Part shown: positions 25,818 to 34,740 of the stretch, one piece after another
Position numbering within the stretch: position 1 is the first letter of the stretch
Layout: the number at the start of each line of letters is the position of its first letter
Source: a virus
Lineage: Duplodnaviria; Caudoviricetes
Length of the DNA stretch: 64,000 nt
Direction: 5' to 3' (one strand)
IMG/VR virus record: IMGVR_UViG_3300029928_000001
Location: 32,001 to 96,000 of that record
Translations under genes and position numbers: made by a program
Notes under the pieces: generated by a model
What the model was told of the DNA's origin: nothing
What the model saw: only the letters and a program-made list of their open reading frames with translations
The model's database searches: none

Positions 25818-25888
25818 CACCGGTCATAAATATATGAAATACTGCTCATAAAATTCATATATAATAGAAAATAAAAAAGGAGGTATTT

Positions 25889-26671
25889 ATGAGTAAATTA
25901 ATTGATTTAACCGGTCAAGATTTTGGCTATTGGCATGTAATAGAACGAGCAGAAAATAGAGCTAATGGCAGAGCTTATTGGAAATGTAAATGCACCGCTT
26001 GTGGAACAATTAAAGATGTTTGTGGAAGTCATTTACGAGCGGGCCATACTACCAATTGTGGTTGTATTCGTATGGAAAAAATACGGCAAGCCAATATTAA
26101 ACATGAAGAAGGTAAAACTTATGGTTTCCTTTACGTAAATCGCATTGCTACAAAAGAAGAGAAACCTCAAAATAATAGAGCAGGAATCTATTGGAATTGT
26201 ACTTGTACAAAATGCGGAAGAGAAAATATTATTGTATTAGGTGATTATTTAAGAAATGGCGATACTAAAAGTTGTGGTTGTTTGAATAGCTTTAATGAAA
26301 GCAAAATTTGTCAAATTTTAGATAATATGAATATACAATATAAACAACAAATTAGCTTTAAGGAATTAAGTAGTAATTTATCTTTTGATATTGGTATTTA
26401 CAATAATAATATTTTACTTTATATAATTGAATATGATGGAATTCAACATTTTGAAATTGGACATTTTAAAGACACTTATTATAAAACGCATGATAATGAT
26501 TTAATAAAAAATAAATATTGTTTTGATTATCATATTCCATTAATTAGAATACCTTATATTTATGAAAATAAATATACAATTCAAGATTTACAATTAACGA
26601 CTACTCGATTTTTACTTACGCCTGAAAATGAGAAAGAATATTATGAAAAATATAGTAACAATAGATTTTGA
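25889..26671 (+). CDS. Free-standing putative homing endonuclease, same family as 7256-8101
   Basis: DLTGQDFG..W.CKC..CG..CGC repeats; FDIGIY..IIEYDGIQH. Confidence 0.7.
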   Translation: MSKLIDLTGQDFGYWHVIERAENRANGRAYWKCKCTACGTIKDVCGSHLRAGHTTNCGCIRMEKIRQANIKHEEGKTYGFLYVNRIATKEEKPQNNRAGIYWNCTCTKCGRENIIVLGDYLRNGDTKSCGCLNSFNESKICQILDNMNIQYKQQISFKELSSNLSFDIGIYNNNILLYIIEYDGIQHFEIGHFKDTYYKTHDNDLIKNKYCFDYHIPLIRIPYIYENKYTIQDLQLTTTRFLLTPENEKEYYEKYSNNRF

Positions 26672-27296
26672 TATAATCATGGCGCCATGCATTCAATTAT
26701 ATAATAATATGGTGCCAAATTTCTCTTGGGATGACTTAAAGCGCAGTTTTCCTTAGATGCAATTATTAAATGCTGATTTAATTCATTATCAACGATTAAC
26801 CAAATGGTTATATGAAATTATTAAAAAAATATCAAAAGAAAATATAATTTTTATAGAAAATCATGCTGCTATTAATAAATATTTACCAAGAGAAAAAATG
26901 AATGTTTATAATATAGACCATCATCATGATTGCGGCTATGGTTTAAAAACAGAAGAATCTGAAAGTTTAAATTGTGGAAATTGGGTATATGACATATCGC
27001 GACATGGTTTTTTAAATACATATACTTGGATAAAAAATATTAGTTCTAGTCAAGAAAAAGAAAAATATGAAGGATTAATCAATTATCAATTTGATTTATT
27101 AGATTATGATTTAGAAAAATTACCTAAGCCTGATTTACTTATTCTTTGTTTGTCAGAGCCATGGACGCCTCCAGAGTATCGACCATTATTTTATTTATGG
27201 AAAGATTTATTAGAACGGTATTATCAAACTGAATTTACAATGGATTATCAAATTGATTTTAATAAAGAGGATTATTATGGGACTTTATACAACTAA
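26643..27296 (+). CDS. Arginase/UPF0489-like metallohydrolase-fold protein (TAG at codon 38)
   Basis: MKNIVTIDFD...FP(TAG)MQ is in frame with the 26757 ORF; NIDHHHD, LNCGNW and CLSEPWTP. Confidence 0.55.
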
Positions 27297-27897
27297 TGGA
27301 TTATATAATGGTTATGATAAAAAAAATAAAGAACGAGAAGCATTAGATTACTATGCTACTCCAACAACAGAGGTAGAAAATATATTAGAAACTTTAAAAA
27401 TAGATTTAAATAATAAAATTATTCTTGAACCTTGCGCAGGCGGTGGACATATGGTGCAGGGGATAGAAAATTATTGTATAAATAATAACTATGCACCTAA
27501 AAAAATTATTAAAACTGATATTATTGACAGAGGTCGCCCTAATTGTTTAACTGGAAAAGAATATGATTTTTTTAGTGATGAATATCCTATTAACAAGGCT
27601 GATATTATTATTATGAATCCGCCTTATTCTTGCATTGAAGGTTTTATGATTCGAGCTTTAGAAATTGCTCCAATTGTAATTATGCTAGGACGTACACAAA
27701 CTCTTGAAGGAAAAGATCGATATGAAAATATTTTTAGAGTAAATCCACCTTCAAGCATTTATCAATATGTTGATAGGATTAATTGTTGGAAAAATGGCGA
27801 AAAACCAAAACAAAGTTCAGCACAAGCATATGCTTGGTTTATTTGGGATAAAGAAAAAATAGGAACTAATTTATTTTGGCTAAGACGAAAGAATTGA
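27277..27897 (+). CDS. Amino-DNA methyltransferase (N6A/N4C)
   Basis: DYYATP, ILEPCAGGG SAM-binding motif, NPPY catalytic motif. Confidence 0.8.
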   Translation: MGLYTTNGLYNGYDKKNKEREALDYYATPTTEVENILETLKIDLNNKIILEPCAGGGHMVQGIENYCINNNYAPKKIIKTDIIDRGRPNCLTGKEYDFFSDEYPINKADIIIMNPPYSCIEGFMIRALEIAPIVIMLGRTQTLEGKDRYENIFRVNPPSSIYQYVDRINCWKNGEKPKQSSAQAYAWFIWDKEKIGTNLFWLRRKN

Positions 27898-27922
27898 TTT
27901 ATTATATAAAATATGATATAAT
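27894..27922 (+). promoter_or_regulatory. sigmaA extended -10 promoter for dnaE
   Basis: TTGATT-N17-TATAAT with TG. Confidence 0.7.
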
Positions 27923-27956
27923 ATAATATAATCAAAAAGGAGGTGCTGCCAACATA

Positions 27957-30900
27957 ATGAGTATAAAACGTTTTGAAATACATTCACACACTCATTATTC
28001 TTAACTCTAATCTAAGACTTATAGACTCCATTAATCATCCAAAAGATTTGATTAATAAAGCTATTGAGTTAGGGTATTGTGGAATAGCAATTACTGACCA
28101 TGAATGTTTAAGTGCTGCAATGGAAGTAAATCAATACGCTAAAAAAATAAAAGAAAAATATCCAGATTTTAAAATTGCTTTAGGTAATGAAATTTATCTA
28201 ACAGACAATAGAGATCGTGGGCAAAAATATTATCATTTTATTTTAATTGCTAAAGATGAATATGGTTTTAAAGCATTAAAAGAAATGAGCACAATTGCTT
28301 GGGATAACATATATACAGATAGAAAAATGGAGCGTGTCCCTTTATTAAAAACAGAACTTAAGCAAGTAATGTCAAAATATAAAGGTCATATTATTGCTAC
28401 AACTGCTTGTATTGGTGGAGAATTATCTCAATTATTACTGCAATTAGTTGAAGCAAGAAAACAAGATGATAAGCAAAAAGCTAAAATTACTTATAAAAAA
28501 ATTATTGATTTTATTGAATTTTGTTTAGATGTATTTGGGCAAGATTTTTTTATTGAATGCGCGCCATCTGATTTCAAAGATCAGATTATTGTAAATCAAC
28601 AATTATATAAGGTAGCACAAGTTTATGGCATTGATATGGTTGTTGGTACTGATGCGCATTATTTAACAGCAGAAGAGCGTCCAATGCACACAGCATATCT
28701 TAATTCAAAAGATGGCGAACGAGAAGTTGATGCTTTTTATCATTACGCTCATCTTATGGATTTTGAAGAATGTGAACGATTATTGAATTTAAGTTTTAAT
28801 GATTTAGATATCGTTCATACAATTATGTCTAATAATAATAAAATTTATGATAAAATACAAGAGTATGATTTAGCTAGAAAACAAATTATTCCAAAAGTAA
28901 CGGTAAAAAATTATCCAAAATTAAGTAAAATAATTGATGAAATAAATTATCCTGTTTTATCTCAACTATTTATTTCAGATGAAATTCAAGAAAGATATTG
29001 GGTAAACGAATGTTGGAATGAATTAAATAATAAACAATTAGTAAATCCTGAATATATTAAACGACTTGAAATTGAAGCTGACATTATTAAATATATTGGA
29101 ACACAATTAGAAGATTGCCTTTTTGCTTATTTTAATACATTTAAACATTATATTGATTTATTTTGGGAATGCGGCTCGATTGTCGGTCCTGGACGTGGTT
29201 CAGCTACAGGTTTTTTAAGTAATTTCTTATTGGGTATTACTCAATTAGATCCAATTCGTTGGGGGCTGCCGTATTGGCGTTTCTTGAATAAAGAACGTGT
29301 GGAGCTTCCAGACATCGATATAGACCTCGCACCGTCAAAACGCCCAGCAATTTTTGAAGCAATTCGTAAAGAAAGAGGAAGATATGGATTAGTACAAGTG
29401 GCTACTTTTGGTACTGAAGGGACTAAATCGGCAATCCTTACTGCGTGTTTCAAAAAAGGCACTAAAGTAAATACTATTAATGGAGATAAAAATATTGAAG
29501 ATATTCAAGCCGGAGATTTAGTAAAAACTTCTGAAGGATATGAAAAAGTTATTGCTCCTACAATTTTTACAGGAACCCCTTCCTATTGTATCAAGACAAA
29601 AAATTCTACAGTAAAAAATTTTTACTGTACTTCAGATCATGAAATTCTTGCAATAAAAAGAACTAGAAGAACGGAAGGCGATAATGTTGATATAAATACT
29701 TTTAAAACATTATTTCCTGAAATTAAAGATTTACCTTCTACAAATAAATTTTATGATGTGAGAAGAAGAAATTGTAAAAAAATTTCTCCTAAATGGGTTC
29801 CCGCAAAAGAAATCGGAGATAATTATTATGGATTAACTTTAATTGATAATACTGTTAATAATATAGCTGAAATTCATTGGGAAAATAATTTTTATCAACG
29901 TTTTGGAATCGGTATAAATAACAATATCCCAATTTCAAATGATTTTTGTGAATTAGTGGGAATTTGGCTAGCCGAAGGAAGTATTAATAAAGCTAATAAT
30001 ACGGTAAGTTTTACAATAAAACAAAAAGAAGAGGCATTAACAAAAAGAATTATTGAATTAATGTGGAAAGTATTTTCTTTAGACAATGCTTGTATAACCG
30101 ATAGGGATAGCTCCGCTGCAAGGACTATTGCATATTCTTCTTCCCAACTTGCCAATTTCTTTTTACAGTTATTTGATAACACAGGAATTTGGAAAGAAAA
30201 AAGATCTGATAATTCTTATCATTATTTAACTCAATGGGATAAAAAATTACCAGATATTTTACGTTATATAGACCCTAAAAAACAACTTCAAATTTTTAAA
30301 GGATGGTTTTTAGGAGATGGATATGCTCGTTCTGAAGATTTGGGGGATCGTCAAGCCAAAGGAACGACTGTATCTAAAAGACTTGCTGATGATATGATTT
30401 TTATTTTACATAGAAATTTTATTAATCCAAGTATTGATATTGAAAAAAGAAGTCTAAATCGATCTGACAGATGTGATTGTTATAATATTTCACTATATGG
30501 AAATTATGCTACATATTTATATAATTACAAATATGTTAATAAAGATTTCTCTCAAATTTTAGAATTTCCTATTGAATGTATGCGAAGCATTGACGTTCCG
30601 GTAATTTATAATTCTAAATTATATTTAAAAACTAAGATACAAGGAACTTATATTCCAGAAGAAACAGAAGATATCGTATATTGTTTAAAGATGCCTCATG
30701 GCAACTTTTCTGTGAATAATACCCTTGTCCATAACTGTAGAGGATATCGATCTGATGAGTTTCCAGCAGGAATTAATATCGAAGATGCTCAATATATGTC
30801 AGGACTAATTCCACAAGAAAGAGGATTCTTATGGGATATAAAAGATGTCGTATATGGTAATGAAGAAAAGAAAAGAAATCCTGTATCAGCTTTTATAAAA

Positions 30901-33900
30901 GAAGTAAATAAATATCCTGGCTTATTAGATATTATTATGAGCATTAATGGACTTATTAATAAACGTTCTACTCATGCTAGCGGTGTTATTTTATATGATA
31001 ATGATCCATTTAAAACCGCTTCTTTTATGAAAACTCCTGGAGGCGACTTGGTTACTTGTTTTGATCTCCATGCGGCAGAAAATGGGGGAGATACCAAATA
31101 TGACTTCTTAGTAACTGAAGTTAGTGATAAAATTATCCAATGCTTAGAATTATTAGAAGATGAAAATGTAATTGAAAAAGATTCATTGCGTAATCTGTAT
31201 AATAAATATTTGCATCCAGAAGCAATGGATACAACTAAACCAGAAATTTGGCAACATCTTGAAGCAGGAGATATTCTTGACGTATTTCAATTTAACGAAA
31301 GTTCAGGCTTAGCTATTGCTAAAAAATGTAAACCAAAAGATGTATATGAAATGACTGCGGCAAATGCTATGATGCGTCTTATGAGCGAATCGGGCAAAGA
31401 GTCACAACAAGACAGGTACGTGCGCATTCAGAAACAAGGTATCCAAGTTTTTGATAATGAAATGAAGCAACATCATTTATCTGATAAAACGAGAGCAGCT
31501 TTACATAAACATTGTGATGCTTATTTTGGTTGCGTGCCGTTACAAGAGCAAATGATGGAAATTCTTATGGATGAAGATATCGCAGGTTTCACTTTAGGAA
31601 GAGCAAATGCGGCGCGTAAAATTGTAGCAAAAAAGAAAATGGATCAAATTCCAGATTTAAAAGCTGAGGTTTATGAACACATTCCTAATAAAGAAACGGC
31701 TGACTATGTCTGGGAGATCGCGATAGCGCCGTCATTAGGGTAAACGAAAAGTCATGCCCTTACATACCTAACCTGTTATCGCAGGGGTAAATTAATCACC
31801 AAAAATTTGGGTATTCTTGATTAATTTGCTAACGGGGAAAGCTAAGTATAATAGAGGAAAATATTATATATGCCAATCCCGTGACAAAGATTATCTTAAT
31901 ATTTTATTTTTCCTCTGAATTTTTTAAATTGAAAGGAAAAATGAAAATGAATTATATTTATTGTTATACTAATTTAATCAATGGAAAAATTTATATCGGT
32001 CAAACAAACAATATTGAACGACGTATTCGAGAACATAAAAGTAATGCTTTTAATAGTAAAAGCGTAAATTATAATAATATTATTCATAAAGCTTTTAGAA
32101 AATATGGATATGAAAATTTTTCAATTGATATATTAGAAACTTTAGAAAATGCTAGTCGAGAAGAAGTAAATGATAGAGAAATTTATTGGATAAAAGAAAA
32201 GCATAGTTTAATTTCAGAAAATGGATATAATGTATTAGAAGGTGGCCGAAATGGATACCAAAAATCTTTACTAAATAAAGAACAAATTACTGACATTAAA
32301 CGAATGATCAAAGAAAAAACTCCATATGATGATATTTGTAAAAAATATAGTGTTTCTAAAACTTTTATTTCAGATATTAACAATGGAAGATTTTTTTATG
32401 ATGAGCAAGAAATTTATCCATTATGTTCATATAGATTAGACAAGGATTTATATGATTTATTAATTGAAGATTTATAGAAACCTATTTTAACCTTTTCCCA
32501 ATTAGCTGATAAATATTCAATAGCACAATCTACTGTTAAAAAATTTAACTATGGAACTTTACGTCATGGAGAATTTTACAAAGGAGAATATCCTATTAGA
32601 AAAATTACTCCACAAGATTATAAGGCTGAATTGATTATTGATTATTTATTAAATACTGATTATACAAAAAAAGAAATAATTCAATTGGTTGGAACTTCTG
32701 ATGAAACAATAAGAAAAATTAATTTAGGAATTAGACATCATCATGAAGATTTAACTTATCCATTAAGATAGTAAGTTTGTAGAGACTATCCCGGGTTAGA
32801 CTGGGAGTAGGGCTACTATTGATACGTAGCTAGGTTTTAGGAAACGAAGCCTATGAAAACCGAAACGGTATGATTATTTATTTTAAAACAAATAATTAAA
32901 AGATAGTCCAATTCTAATAGAAATATTAGAGAAAAATTGATGCTTTTTCAAAAAATCATTCACTTCCGTATTCTTTCGTCGGTGTCCAAACGATCGTTTT
33001 AGCCACACAATTTAATCCTATCTATTGGAATACAGCTTGTTTAATTGTCAATAGCGGTTCATTAGAAAATAATGAACAGCTTGAAGAAGTGGATATATTT
33101 GAAGGTGAAGATGATATAGCTGATGGTGTTATTTATATAGATGCGCCAGATGGACAAACTAAATTAAGAAAAGTTTCTACAGACTATGGTAAAGTGGCAA
33201 AAGCTTTAGGTGATGTAATTAATGCAGGTATTAAAGTTAGTTTAGTTGATATTAATAAATCTAGTTTTGGTTTTAAACCCGATGTAGAAAATAATCAAAT
33301 TATGTTTGGCTTAAAAGGTTTATTAAATGTAAGTGATGAAATTATTGCTGATATTATTAAAAATAGACCTTATAAATCTCCAAAAGATTTTTTAAGAAAA
33401 GTAAAGCCAAAAAAACAATCTATGATTTCTTTAATTAAGAGTGGAGCTTTTGACTCAATGATGGAGCGTAGGGCTTGTATGGTTTGGTATATTTGGGAAA
33501 CTTGTGATAAGAAAAGTAATTTAAACTTACAAAATATGGCAAGTTTAATTAAGTTTAATCTTTTACCAGAACAAACTGAAGAACAAACAATGGCTCGTCG
33601 TGTTTATGAATTTAATAGATATCTAAAAGCTTGTTGTAAAATTAATGGAACAACTAATTATATTATGAACGAGCGTACTATTGATTTTCTTGCTGAATTA
33701 GATAAGGTTAATTTAATACAAGAGGATAATACATTAAATGCTAAAATATGGGATAAGGTTTATCAAAAATGGATGGATGTATTCAGAATATGGATTAGCG
33801 AAAATAAACAACAGATTTTAGATAATTTAAACACTTTAATTTTTGAACAAGATTGGGAGAAGTATGGCGATGAAGGAAATATATCTCGCTGGGAGATGAA

Positions 33901-34384
33901 AACTATGTGTTTCTATTATCATGATCATGAGTTAAAAAATCTTCAAGAAAATTATTATGGAATAAAAGATTTCTTTAAACTTTCTTCAGAGCCAATAGTA
34001 GAAAAGACTTTTGAGCGTGGTGGAAAAACTATTCCATTATATAAACTTGATAAAATAGCAGGAACTTGTATTTCTAAAAATAAAAGTAAAGCAACTGTTA
34101 CTTTATTAACCACTACTGGTGTTGTAAATGTTAAATTTAGAAAAGAATATTTTTCTTTATTTGATAAACGTATTTCAGAAAAACAGCCAGATGGAACAAA
34201 AAAAGTTAAAGAAAATAGTTGGTTTAATCGTGGAGAAATGATTATTGTTAATGGCATGCGCTCTGGTGATGATTTTATTGTGAAAAAATATGCAAGTACA
34301 GTTGGACATCAATTAATGAAAATTACAAGTATTGATAATGAAGGTCGAATTACTGTAACGAGTGAAAGATATGAGGTACAATAA
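27957..34384 (+). CDS. dnaE: DNA polymerase III alpha (DnaE) with a 7-nt 5' discontinuity, one intein and one group I intron
   Basis: PHP motifs HSHTHYS / AITDH / TDAHY; GPGRGSA; PDIDID; STHASG; KYDFL; splicing 31741^32940 restores PSLG-YAFSKNH. Confidence 0.9.
29446..30735 (+). mobile_element. Intein (430 aa) with LAGLIDADG domain in DnaE
   Basis: LTA|CFKKGT...TSDH...LVHN|CRG; VGIWLAEG and FKGWFLGDG. Confidence 0.95.
31742..32939 (+). mobile_element. Group I intron in dnaE
   Basis: IGS CAT-GCCCT pairs 5' exon AGGGT and 3' exon ATG; AGACTAT (~32783) and ATAGTCC (~32903) form P7; terminal G. Confidence 0.9.
31941..32774 (+). CDS. Intron-encoded GIY-YIG homing endonuclease with HTH repeats (internal TAG)
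   Basis: YIYCYTN..KIYIGQT; reading through TAG 32475-32477 adds two more HTH-like repeats ending YPIRK and YPLR; stop TAA 32772-32774. Confidence 0.85.
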
Positions 34385-34740
34385 TGAAAATGATAATTGT
34401 AATGCGTAAAGATTTAGGAATGCGCAAAGGTAAAATGTGTGCGCAAGCTGGTCATGCGGTTCTTGGGGCAATGACTACTGCGCTTGATATGTTTGAAAAA
34501 GAAAAATATGCTAATTGGTATAAAAATAACTTACAAACTAAAATTTGTTTAGGAGTAGATTCTGAACAAGAGCTTTTAGATATTTATGAAGCAGGATTAG
34601 AACAAGGTTATATTGTTTATTTAGTAGAAGACTACGGTTTAACTGAATTCCATCAGCAACATACATATACTTGTCTTGCTTTTGAACCATTAGAAGATGA
34701 ACAAATTGACACAATTACAGGAGGGCTTTCTCTTTTATGA
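34384..34740 (+). CDS. pth2: Peptidyl-tRNA hydrolase, Pth2 type
   Basis: KMIIVMRKDLGMRKGKMCAQAGHA, TKICL and EDYGLTE motifs. Confidence 0.9.
   Translation: MKMIIVMRKDLGMRKGKMCAQAGHAVLGAMTTALDMFEKEKYANWYKNNLQTKICLGVDSEQELLDIYEAGLEQGYIVYLVEDYGLTEFHQQHTYTCLAFEPLEDEQIDTITGGLSLL

Follow-up and report, generated by a model that had tools for sequence, protein, structure and literature searches.

How is the DnaE polymerase of an uncultured gut phage produced, when the frame of its gene closes at a stop codon after 15 codons and the remainder is encoded in another frame? The gene (dnaE) is located in a 64,000-nt stretch of DNA, hereafter the window, which represents bases 32001–96000 of the 178,419-bp IMG/VR virus record IMGVR_UViG_3300029928_000001 (31% G+C). 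The original prediction had described an ATG at 27957, 15 codons closed by a TCT-TAA stop and a DnaE resumed in the +1 frame, and this layout was found to be exact. It is shown here that the 7 nt separating the two parts are a genuine non-coding insertion and not an error. Comparison of related genes further suggests that they are passed over by a programmed 7-nt ribosomal hop, encoded on a short recombining module with a history of association with homing endonucleases, a reading to which we assign a probability of roughly 0.65. The elements of the site are as follows, where the names of the two Ser codons anticipate the proposed hop:

27938–27945, + strand: Shine-Dalgarno sequence AGGAGGTG, 11 nt ahead of the ATG
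27957–28001, + strand: first dnaE coding piece of 15 codons, MSIKRFEIHSHTHYS, which starts at ATG 27957 and carries the first metal motif (HxH) of the PHP domain
27999–28001, + strand: putative take-off codon UCU (Ser15), the same as the landing codon
28002–28008, + strand: 7 nt predicted to stay untranslated, namely stop UAA (28002–28004), C (28005) and landing codon UCU (28006–28008), missing from all unbroken homologues
28009–31741, + strand: dnaE exon 1 past the hop, NLRLIDS...APSLG, with the PHP, Pol III alpha and finger domains (Pfam)

From AAT 28009 onward, reading follows the 1256-aa frame of DnaE, which is +1 relative to ATG 27957. As had been predicted, deletion of the 7 nt gives a seamless DnaE, and its product HSHTHYSNLRLIDS matches the spacing of unbroken homologues. 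The comparison used 160 related loci taken from IMG/VR and metagenome contigs, among which ~85 distinct unbroken alleles were present. These alleles read HxHTxYSN(L/I)RLxD without a break, and the homologues of the cultured phages Geobacillus GR1, SPbeta (YorL) and Enterococcus VPE25 exhibited an equally uninterrupted HxHTxxSN(F/I)RLxD(A/S). The block 28002–28008 is hence absent from both sets. A plain +1 shift would yield HYSNSNLRL, of which the two additional residues (NS) are found in no homologue.

When the same site was compared among related phages, as the original prediction had proposed, the gap turned out to be shared: eight further distinct gap alleles were obtained from other metagenomes, spread over ~25 contigs and many samples. 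The alleles, written as take-off codon, stop, further bases and landing codon, are as follows:

TCT TAA C TCT: the window
TCT TAA A TCT: loci L181-183
TCT TAG G TCT: locus L074, and on a second background L214/216
TCT TAG T TCT: locus L189
TCT TAG GG TCT: loci L171/172/218
TCT TAG TGGG TCT: ten IMG/VR contigs, e.g., L202, L204 and L210; a variant, L206, lands on TCC
TCC TAG GTAAG TCC (inter-codon bases TAGGTAAG): loci L068/L176

Hop lengths among the nine distinct alleles are 7, 8, 10 and 11 nt, so that both +1 and +2 offsets are represented. A stop (TAA or TAG) stands immediately 3' of the Ser take-off codon in all nine, followed by 1–5 further bases. The take-off and landing codons are TCT/TCT in seven alleles including that of the window, TCC/TCC in one and TCT/TCC in one; they are identical in 8 of 9, and the TCC/TCC allele represents a co-variation of the pair. 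TCY occupies the landing position in 9/9 gap alleles versus 17/85 unbroken ones (Fisher p = 3e-6, a value that overstates independence because the gap alleles share ancestry). The first halves of the short open reading frames (mini-ORFs) ahead of the gap diverge widely (MSIKRFEI, MRTYFGA, MGFFNG, MGSYFDN, MSSYYSI, MGYFSG and others), whereas their HxHTHYS is invariant across all gap alleles. This indicates that the mini-ORF is still under protein-level selection. Judged from these sequences, the canonical protein of all nine alleles is obtained only by re-pairing at the landing codon. A single-base shift is insufficient, because the 8- and 11-nt alleles need +2; where the original prediction had allowed either a hop or a +1 shift, the allele comparison thus favors the former, and the latter fails for these two lengths.

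A second class of recoded alleles was found at 16 loci (L020-23, L049, L053, L055, L057, L067, L070, L128, L129, L133, L159, L160 and L179). Instead of a gap, they read ...CGC TTA CTT TGA CTG T..., which places the CTT TGA C heptamer of prfB five codons (~15 nt) 3' of the Ser codon, and a +1 shift at this heptamer restores ...RLL|DCIN. The heptamer is invariant while neighboring synonymous sites are variable, and it was recovered from several samples. The Shine-Dalgarno-like stimulator of prfB is not present at these sites of the relatives. The CTT TGA C site is polymorphic among near-identical phages, and it is linked to an HNH gene of which the 3' end forms the ribosome-binding site (RBS) of dnaE.

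The gap alleles share a further property, a helix that joins the start codon to the take-off site. In the window, its two arms are located as follows:

27954–27962, + strand: 5' arm of the stem, AUAAUGAGU, which contains the AUG and pairs with 27990–27998 in both the minimum-free-energy (MFE) and centroid folds
27990–27998, + strand: 3' arm of the stem, ACUCAUUAU, composed of the Thr-His-Tyr codons and abutting the take-off codon, in the same MFE and centroid folds

Helix length was counted in a fixed register, in which AUG is paired with CAU of the His codon. An uninterrupted helix of 9–11 bp was present in 9/9 gap alleles; none of 72 unbroken alleles exceeded 6 bp, and 8 CTTTGAC alleles scored 0 bp. 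Two stem positions exhibited compensatory changes from A-U to G-C (AUGAG/CUCAU versus AUGGG/CCCAU, and AUAAUG/CAUUAU versus GUAAUG/CAUUAC), and in the TAGTGGG group the helix reaches over the take-off codon and the stop. RNAalifold detected no structure in the MAFFT alignment of the alleles, which did not bring the start codons into register. Support for another hairpin on the 3' side of the gap was not significant, as the MFE (−12 to +48) was not clearly lower in gap than in unbroken alleles (p = 0.09). Pairing of UCUUA(G/A) with (C/A)UAAGA was seen in a subset only, namely the window, L171/172 and L204/206. Since the gap has just 7 nt, a hairpin within it like that of T4 gene 60 is impossible. 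Pairing of mRNA as it leaves the ribosome has been argued to drive forward bypassing (preprint 10.1101/2024.12.09.627546). The stem described here buries the start codon, and could therefore also gate initiation.

The recoded patch appears to be exchanged between phages. In a tree of 440 DnaE residues both recoded classes were scattered, with some recoded genes differing hardly at all from unbroken ones. Resolution in a tree built from the 150 nt 3' of the site was too low to tell whether the patches have a single origin. Locus L068 (gap) and locus L069 (no gap) are ~97% identical over 5 kb outside a ~210-nt patch that extends from the RBS to about codon 60. Similarly, the CTT TGA C loci L055/57/53/67/49 and their counterparts L039/41/43/44/73 differ in a patch from the RBS to the shift site, in which the coding differences are synonymous. 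The RBS is the stronger one in the recoded L055-type allele (AAGGAGGG versus GAAAGG). G(A/G)GGTG was found in all gap alleles at a similarly long distance ahead of the start, while the unbroken sisters compared have weaker sites.

The interval between the helicase gene and dnaE (25827–27956 of the window) is a variable slot, which in most relatives is ~110 nt long and which holds none or some of the following genes of the window:

25889–26671, + strand: free-standing homing endonuclease with two Zn-ribbon WxCxCxCG...SCGC repeats and a Vsr/PD-(D/E)XK-like IEYDGIQHF domain
26628–27296, + strand: unknown ORF with one in-frame TAG
27253–27897, + strand: DNA methyltransferase (phrog_799, 1.3e-50)

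The product of 25889–26671 matches phrog_374 (2.9e-27), phrog_559 and phrog_9084, which are annotated as HNH or homing endonuclease, and its homologues are located directly upstream of recoded dnaE genes in L021 (65% identity) and L189. Nuclease genes in this position were observed in L171, L055/57/160, L189, L021/129/179, L204 and L210, each consisting of Zn-ribbon repeats with either an HNH or a Vsr-like IEYDGxQH domain (Vsr-like in L189). The junctions are intimate: the stop codon of the HNH gene overlaps the dnaE ATG in L171, and the final codons of the nuclease ORF constitute the dnaE RBS in L055/57/160, where the L055 gene is of the HNH type. Locus L171 and locus L172 are 97% identical except for a clean ~750-nt HNH indel; the gap is kept in both, and ~22 nt from the end of the nuclease ORF survive in L172. 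Remnants of an HNH 3' end also persist in L053/67/49. Presence/absence polymorphism and short conversion tracts were thus seen among near-identical relatives (L171/L172, L068/L069 and L055-type/L043-type). After near-duplicates were collapsed, nuclease motifs were present within 1.3 kb upstream in 7/24 recoded clusters versus 1/73 unbroken ones (p = 1.8e-4). The intron scar considered by the original prediction was close to this in spirit and wrong in detail, as the break is associated with free-standing homing endonuclease genes rather than with an intron.

From these sequences we infer a hop, a role of the stem and an immunity function, which may be combined as follows. Translation would begin at AUG 27957 and proceed until UCU 27999 occupies the P site and UAA 28002 the A site. 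The peptidyl-tRNA-Ser, carrying a 15-residue chain, would then release UCU, the mRNA would slide by 7 nt, and the tRNA would re-pair on UCU 28006. Decoding would restart at AAU 28009 to generate the normal N-terminus of DnaE (the HSHTHYSNLRLIDS junction), for which a tryptic junction peptide FEIHSHTHYSNLR is predicted. The 9-bp stem is probably a part of this device: it may re-form behind the ribosome and favor forward movement, by analogy with T4 gene 60, or may gate initiation. The insertion would belong to a small mobile module, made up of the strong RBS, the first dnaE codons and the gap, that moves together with free-standing homing endonuclease genes inserting immediately 5' of dnaE. By interrupting the conserved 5' part of dnaE, the insertion probably destroys the target of the nuclease there, a role that the 50-nt gap of gene 60 plays against MobA.

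Several observations weigh against this proposal. A single assembly supplies the exact TAA-C allele, because no near-identical copy of the phage was found in IMG/VR or the metagenome contigs, a search that may have left out records of the phage's own genome and in which the best relative showed 71% aa identity. The patch has a shared ancestry, with ACY CAT TAY TCY in all gap alleles, which therefore do not represent nine independent events. The stem of the window is A-U rich and weak (~−6.7 kcal/mol), and the local fold of the window is no better than that of shuffled sequences (z = −0.99), so that the support for the stem is comparative only. As for the nuclease, it lies 1.3 kb upstream of dnaE in the window with two genes in between, and 10 of the 13 gap-allele clusters have no nuclease within 1.3 kb. 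Many nuclease paralogues are carried by these phages, and adjacency to dnaE could therefore partly be a matter of chance. Finally, synthetic stop-hops in E. coli were reportedly inefficient, which would be awkward for an essential polymerase.

A hop may also be real while mainly serving as a regulatory sensor of release-factor activity or of the amber code switch, with the nuclease linkage being incidental. This possibility arises from the genetic code of the phage, which reads TAG as sense: its long-ORF coverage increased from 0.60 to 0.80 on TAG readthrough. Elsewhere in its genome (G000), it carries the following genes:

G000:C1:143646-144698 (outside the window): its own release factor 2 (RF2; TIGR00020, 398 bits), with no internal frameshift
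G000:C1:9176-9464 (outside the window): transfer-messenger RNA (tmRNA), tag AKNNYRPVLMAA
G000:C1:9907-9978 (outside the window): suppressor tRNA with anticodon CUA
G000:C1:8408-8493 (outside the window): tRNA-Ser(UGA), which could read the UCU take-off codon

Within the window itself, ARAGORN identified no tRNA. The suppressor tRNA-CUA, RF2, tmRNA and a peptidyl-tRNA hydrolase (Pth2), together with the recoded TAG and the stronger RBSs of recoded alleles, all fit a sensor. In relatives with TAG at the site, suppression would moreover lead to a nearby 0-frame stop and turn DnaE off late in infection. A rule that the stop of the site is never the reassigned one was tried on this basis. It held in three genomes (TAA in the TAG-recoded phage studied here, TGA in TAG-recoded G002 and TAG in TGA-recoded G001), but was broken by the TAG-recoded L171, L189 and TAGTGGG group, all of which use TAG. 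Since this rule failed, release-factor sensing offers no general explanation, and the proposal of the original prediction that polymerase synthesis is tied to termination efficiency in a recoding phage was not borne out as an explanation of why the gap exists, the relation between stop and code being inconsistent. The TGA of TAG-recoded CTTTGAC alleles likewise follows no consistent pattern, and nearly identical phages thrive without a gap. The Pth2 gene, of the archaeal/eukaryotic type (PF01981, 3.9e-32), is located directly after dnaE (34384–34740). It was considered as a companion of the hop and rejected, as it is absent from G001 and G002, both of which have a recoded dnaE; a release-factor (RF-1 domain) gene was not found in four other genomes with recoded dnaE. 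We hence regard a primarily regulatory device as unlikely, while a link of DnaE output to termination efficiency is possible as a secondary effect. For the TAG alleles of TAG-recoded relatives, the suppressor could divert ribosomes to the nearby 0-frame stop and bring about a late DnaE shut-off. As a separate observation, in-frame TAG codons occur inside dnaE in L082, L191 and L192 (codon 6 after Asp) and in L048, L050-54, L062, L065 and L072, which indicates that amber-recoded members of the group do not all keep their replication genes free of TAG.

A plain +1 frameshift at UCU UAA C, either by an out-of-frame Asn-tRNA on AAC or by slippage, would require the same frame change as the hop in the window, and a stop in the A site is its classic trigger. 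Judging from the 16 relatives with the prfB-type CTT TGA C, this gene family evidently makes use of +1 shifts at stop codons. The product would be HYS-NS-NLRL, with a tryptic peptide FEIHSHTHYSNSNLR, but its added residues fall in a motif of which the spacing is invariant across the ~85 unbroken alleles. Furthermore, the tRNA on UCU pairs poorly with CUU, no Shine-Dalgarno-like stimulator exists in the 15 nt upstream of the site of the window, the 8- and 11-nt alleles of the same architecture require +2, and the matched landing codon would be left without a reason. This explanation is likewise improbable.

Whether dnaE might simply do without the bypass depends on the state of the rest of the gene, which continues through two further intervening elements:

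29446–30735, + strand: LAGLIDADG intein of 430 aa in the Pol III alpha core of dnaE (Pfam Hint, LAGLIDADG_3 and Intein_splicing)
31742–32939, + strand: putative group I-type intron harboring an ORF for a GIY-YIG endonuclease at 31881–32477 (PF01541, 1.1e-09)
32940–34384, + strand: dnaE exon 2, the HhH and C-terminal part (PF14579, 4.5e-18)

Exon 1 matches PF02811 (2.3e-24), PF07733 (3.6e-39) and PF17657 (1.1e-16), and the whole satisfies the family C polymerase domain order in Pfam (PHP, Pol III alpha core, finger and HhH). The protein is 38–41% identical to the GR1, VPE25 and SPbeta YorL polymerases. The intein is placed between ...SAILTA and CRGYRSDEF, with its boundaries set by comparison with the intein-less DnaE of L171 and L055. 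At the intron, the dnaE frame ends with APSLG* and is taken up again at 32940 (AFSKNHSLPYSF); the junction GGGT|ATGCT restores Tyr and ...SLGYAFSKNHSLPYSF, as in L171. The group I assignment of this intron is tentative, because Rfam at gathering thresholds gave no match anywhere in the window, the 31742–32939 segment included. Apart from the gap, dnaE is thus intact over ~1,700 codons, with the intein and the intron both still restoring the frame, and it is the sole family A, B or C polymerase gene of the 178-kb genome, which makes a dead gene unlikely.

Without a bypass, the 15 codons would be a mere leader followed by internal initiation or re-initiation of a DnaE that lacks HxH, or the gene would be a recent pseudogene whose function is taken by the host replicase. 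The +1 frame is indeed open from TTG 27973, and some DnaE proteins, e.g., that of E. coli, have degenerate PHP metal sites. This TTG, however, has no Shine-Dalgarno sequence, and the downstream frame of L068 has no start codon before the gap. HxHTHYS is moreover kept in all the diverged mini-ORFs, and the integrity of the only polymerase gene, with its frame-restoring intein and intron, also speaks against a loss of function. We therefore consider both versions very unlikely. An origin of the 7 nt in faulty assembly or sequencing of the metagenomic contig, for which one could cite the single assembly and the 71% identity of the best relative, is scarcely credible, as a 7-nt insertion is atypical of short-read error, eight alleles of the same architecture occur in ~25 contigs from many samples (such independent alleles also refute the assembly chimera considered by the original prediction), and the insertion comes together with an allele-specific stem and Thr-His-Tyr codons.

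Two further features of the phage touch on this locus. A promoter-like site precedes dnaE:

27894–27922, + strand: TTGATT, 17 nt and TG-n-TATAAT, matching 10/12 consensus positions with the TG of an extended −10

The motif has ~10 occurrences in the genome and is conserved in L068/L069. A block TTATATAAAATATGATATAATATAA (27900–27935 of the window) is repeated at ~9 other places in G000, also precedes dnaE in L068/L069, and is probably an early or middle promoter of the phage. Secondly, genome-wide tblastn of G000 versus G001 and G002 for other frame breaks revealed no second clear hop. At G000:C1:27170-27290 (outside the window), a 112-aa ORF of G002 aligned in two frames with 61% and 87% identity. 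The break of this split, the one strong case, lies at ~27,228 and reads GGA ATA A CAC GTA, with neither a stop nor matched codons; it may mark the place where an intron ORF ends and passes into an exon (VGEQDSHELGE...).

The closest known system is T4 gene 60, of which the bypass lies within a MobA HNH homing-endonuclease element (bioRxiv 10.1101/2022.08.31.505936; PMC7026636). In relatives of this element, HNH is swapped for a Vsr-type or GIY-YIG nuclease, or the nuclease is lost while the bypass is kept (10.1101/2022.08.31.505936). The likeness to the dnaE locus is extensive. In both, the insertion affects a conserved, metal-binding segment of a replication enzyme that is essential, and it is associated with a free-standing homing endonuclease gene, which for dnaE is directly adjacent in relatives; the element is present in some and absent from other genomes that are otherwise near-identical; one nuclease family can replace another (HNH and Vsr-like); and the nuclease can be lost with the gap retained. 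The matched codons could be read by one tRNA, a stop stands directly 3' of the take-off codon in the dnaE of the window, and the putative dnaE stem abuts the take-off codon, as does the 5' stem-loop of gene 60. The differences are equally clear. The gap is 7–11 nt here and 50 in T4, the gene is dnaE instead of a topoisomerase gene, and the take-off codon is Ser UCY instead of Gly GGA. The dnaE gap is too short for a take-off hairpin, the nascent chain has 13–15 residues, and the start codon is part of the stem. In sequence, the dnaE element is not homologous to the T4 cassette, and the nuclease lies upstream of the whole dnaE rather than splitting the gene into two ORFs. The T4 bypass is experimentally proven, whereas the dnaE hop is a prediction from sequence.

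Gaps of 10 nt, and one of 7 nt, were proposed to be bypassed in terminase genes of the Streptomyces phage phiHau3 type, with support from mass spectrometry in E. coli (PMC10732093). There, too, a 7–10 nt gap in an essential phage gene is missing from homologues with conserved junctions, and a +1 shift would add residues where a bypass restores the canonical protein. The terminase gap differs in having a hungry UUA sense codon, a host bldA tRNA and a proposed role in lysis/lysogeny, in contrast to the stop as A-site codon of dnaE; the dnaE element is linked to homing endonucleases, and no start-codon stem was described for the terminase. The CUU UGA C site of prfB, the RF2 gene, shares its heptamer with the 16 relatives, where it lies five codons downstream of the Ser codon, and an A-site stop is the trigger in prfB and the presumed one in dnaE. 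The window, by contrast, has UCU UAA C and no such heptamer, and the sites of the relatives lack the Shine-Dalgarno-like stimulator 3 nt upstream. Nor is an autoregulatory loop apparent, given that dnaE does not encode a release factor. In synthetic stop-hops of E. coli (Weiss et al. 1987, as cited in PMC5009743 and PMC10732093), the P-site tRNA re-pairs on a matched codon a few nt past the stop. Those were engineered, whereas the present ones are natural, conserved and located in the gene for an essential protein. The literature searched contained no paper joining translational bypassing with phage dnaE in such an arrangement. To our knowledge, natural bypassing is secure only in T4 gene 60 with its homologues and in yeast mitochondria, the Streptomyces phages being one further candidate.

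Taken as a whole, gut and rumen phages may carry a family of mini mobile bypass cassettes, in each of which a strong RBS, a start/take-off stem, a Ser take-off codon, a stop, 1–5 bases and a Ser landing codon are combined at the 5' end of dnaE. Their 7–11 nt hops would be usefully efficient in Firmicutes-type hosts, interchangeable with the prfB-like CUU UGA C, and spread with HNH or Vsr-like homing endonucleases as self-immunity, while TAG alleles in amber-recoded phages would also switch the polymerase off when the suppressor tRNA appears. This combined proposal is tentative, and we rate its chances as somewhat short of even. Gene callers split or truncate such polymerase genes, and annotation pipelines for gut phages therefore need this pattern. 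If the hop is true, it would represent a second, unrelated bypass family with dozens of natural variants, comprising 7–11 nt gaps, both offsets, minimal signals and a co-varying stem, and would provide a compact system for defining what a ribosome requires for hopping. The CTT TGA C alleles in the same slot would allow a natural side-by-side comparison of hopping and +1 shifting. It would further mean that homing endonucleases repeatedly solve the problem of self-cleavage by placing untranslated bases in essential genes.

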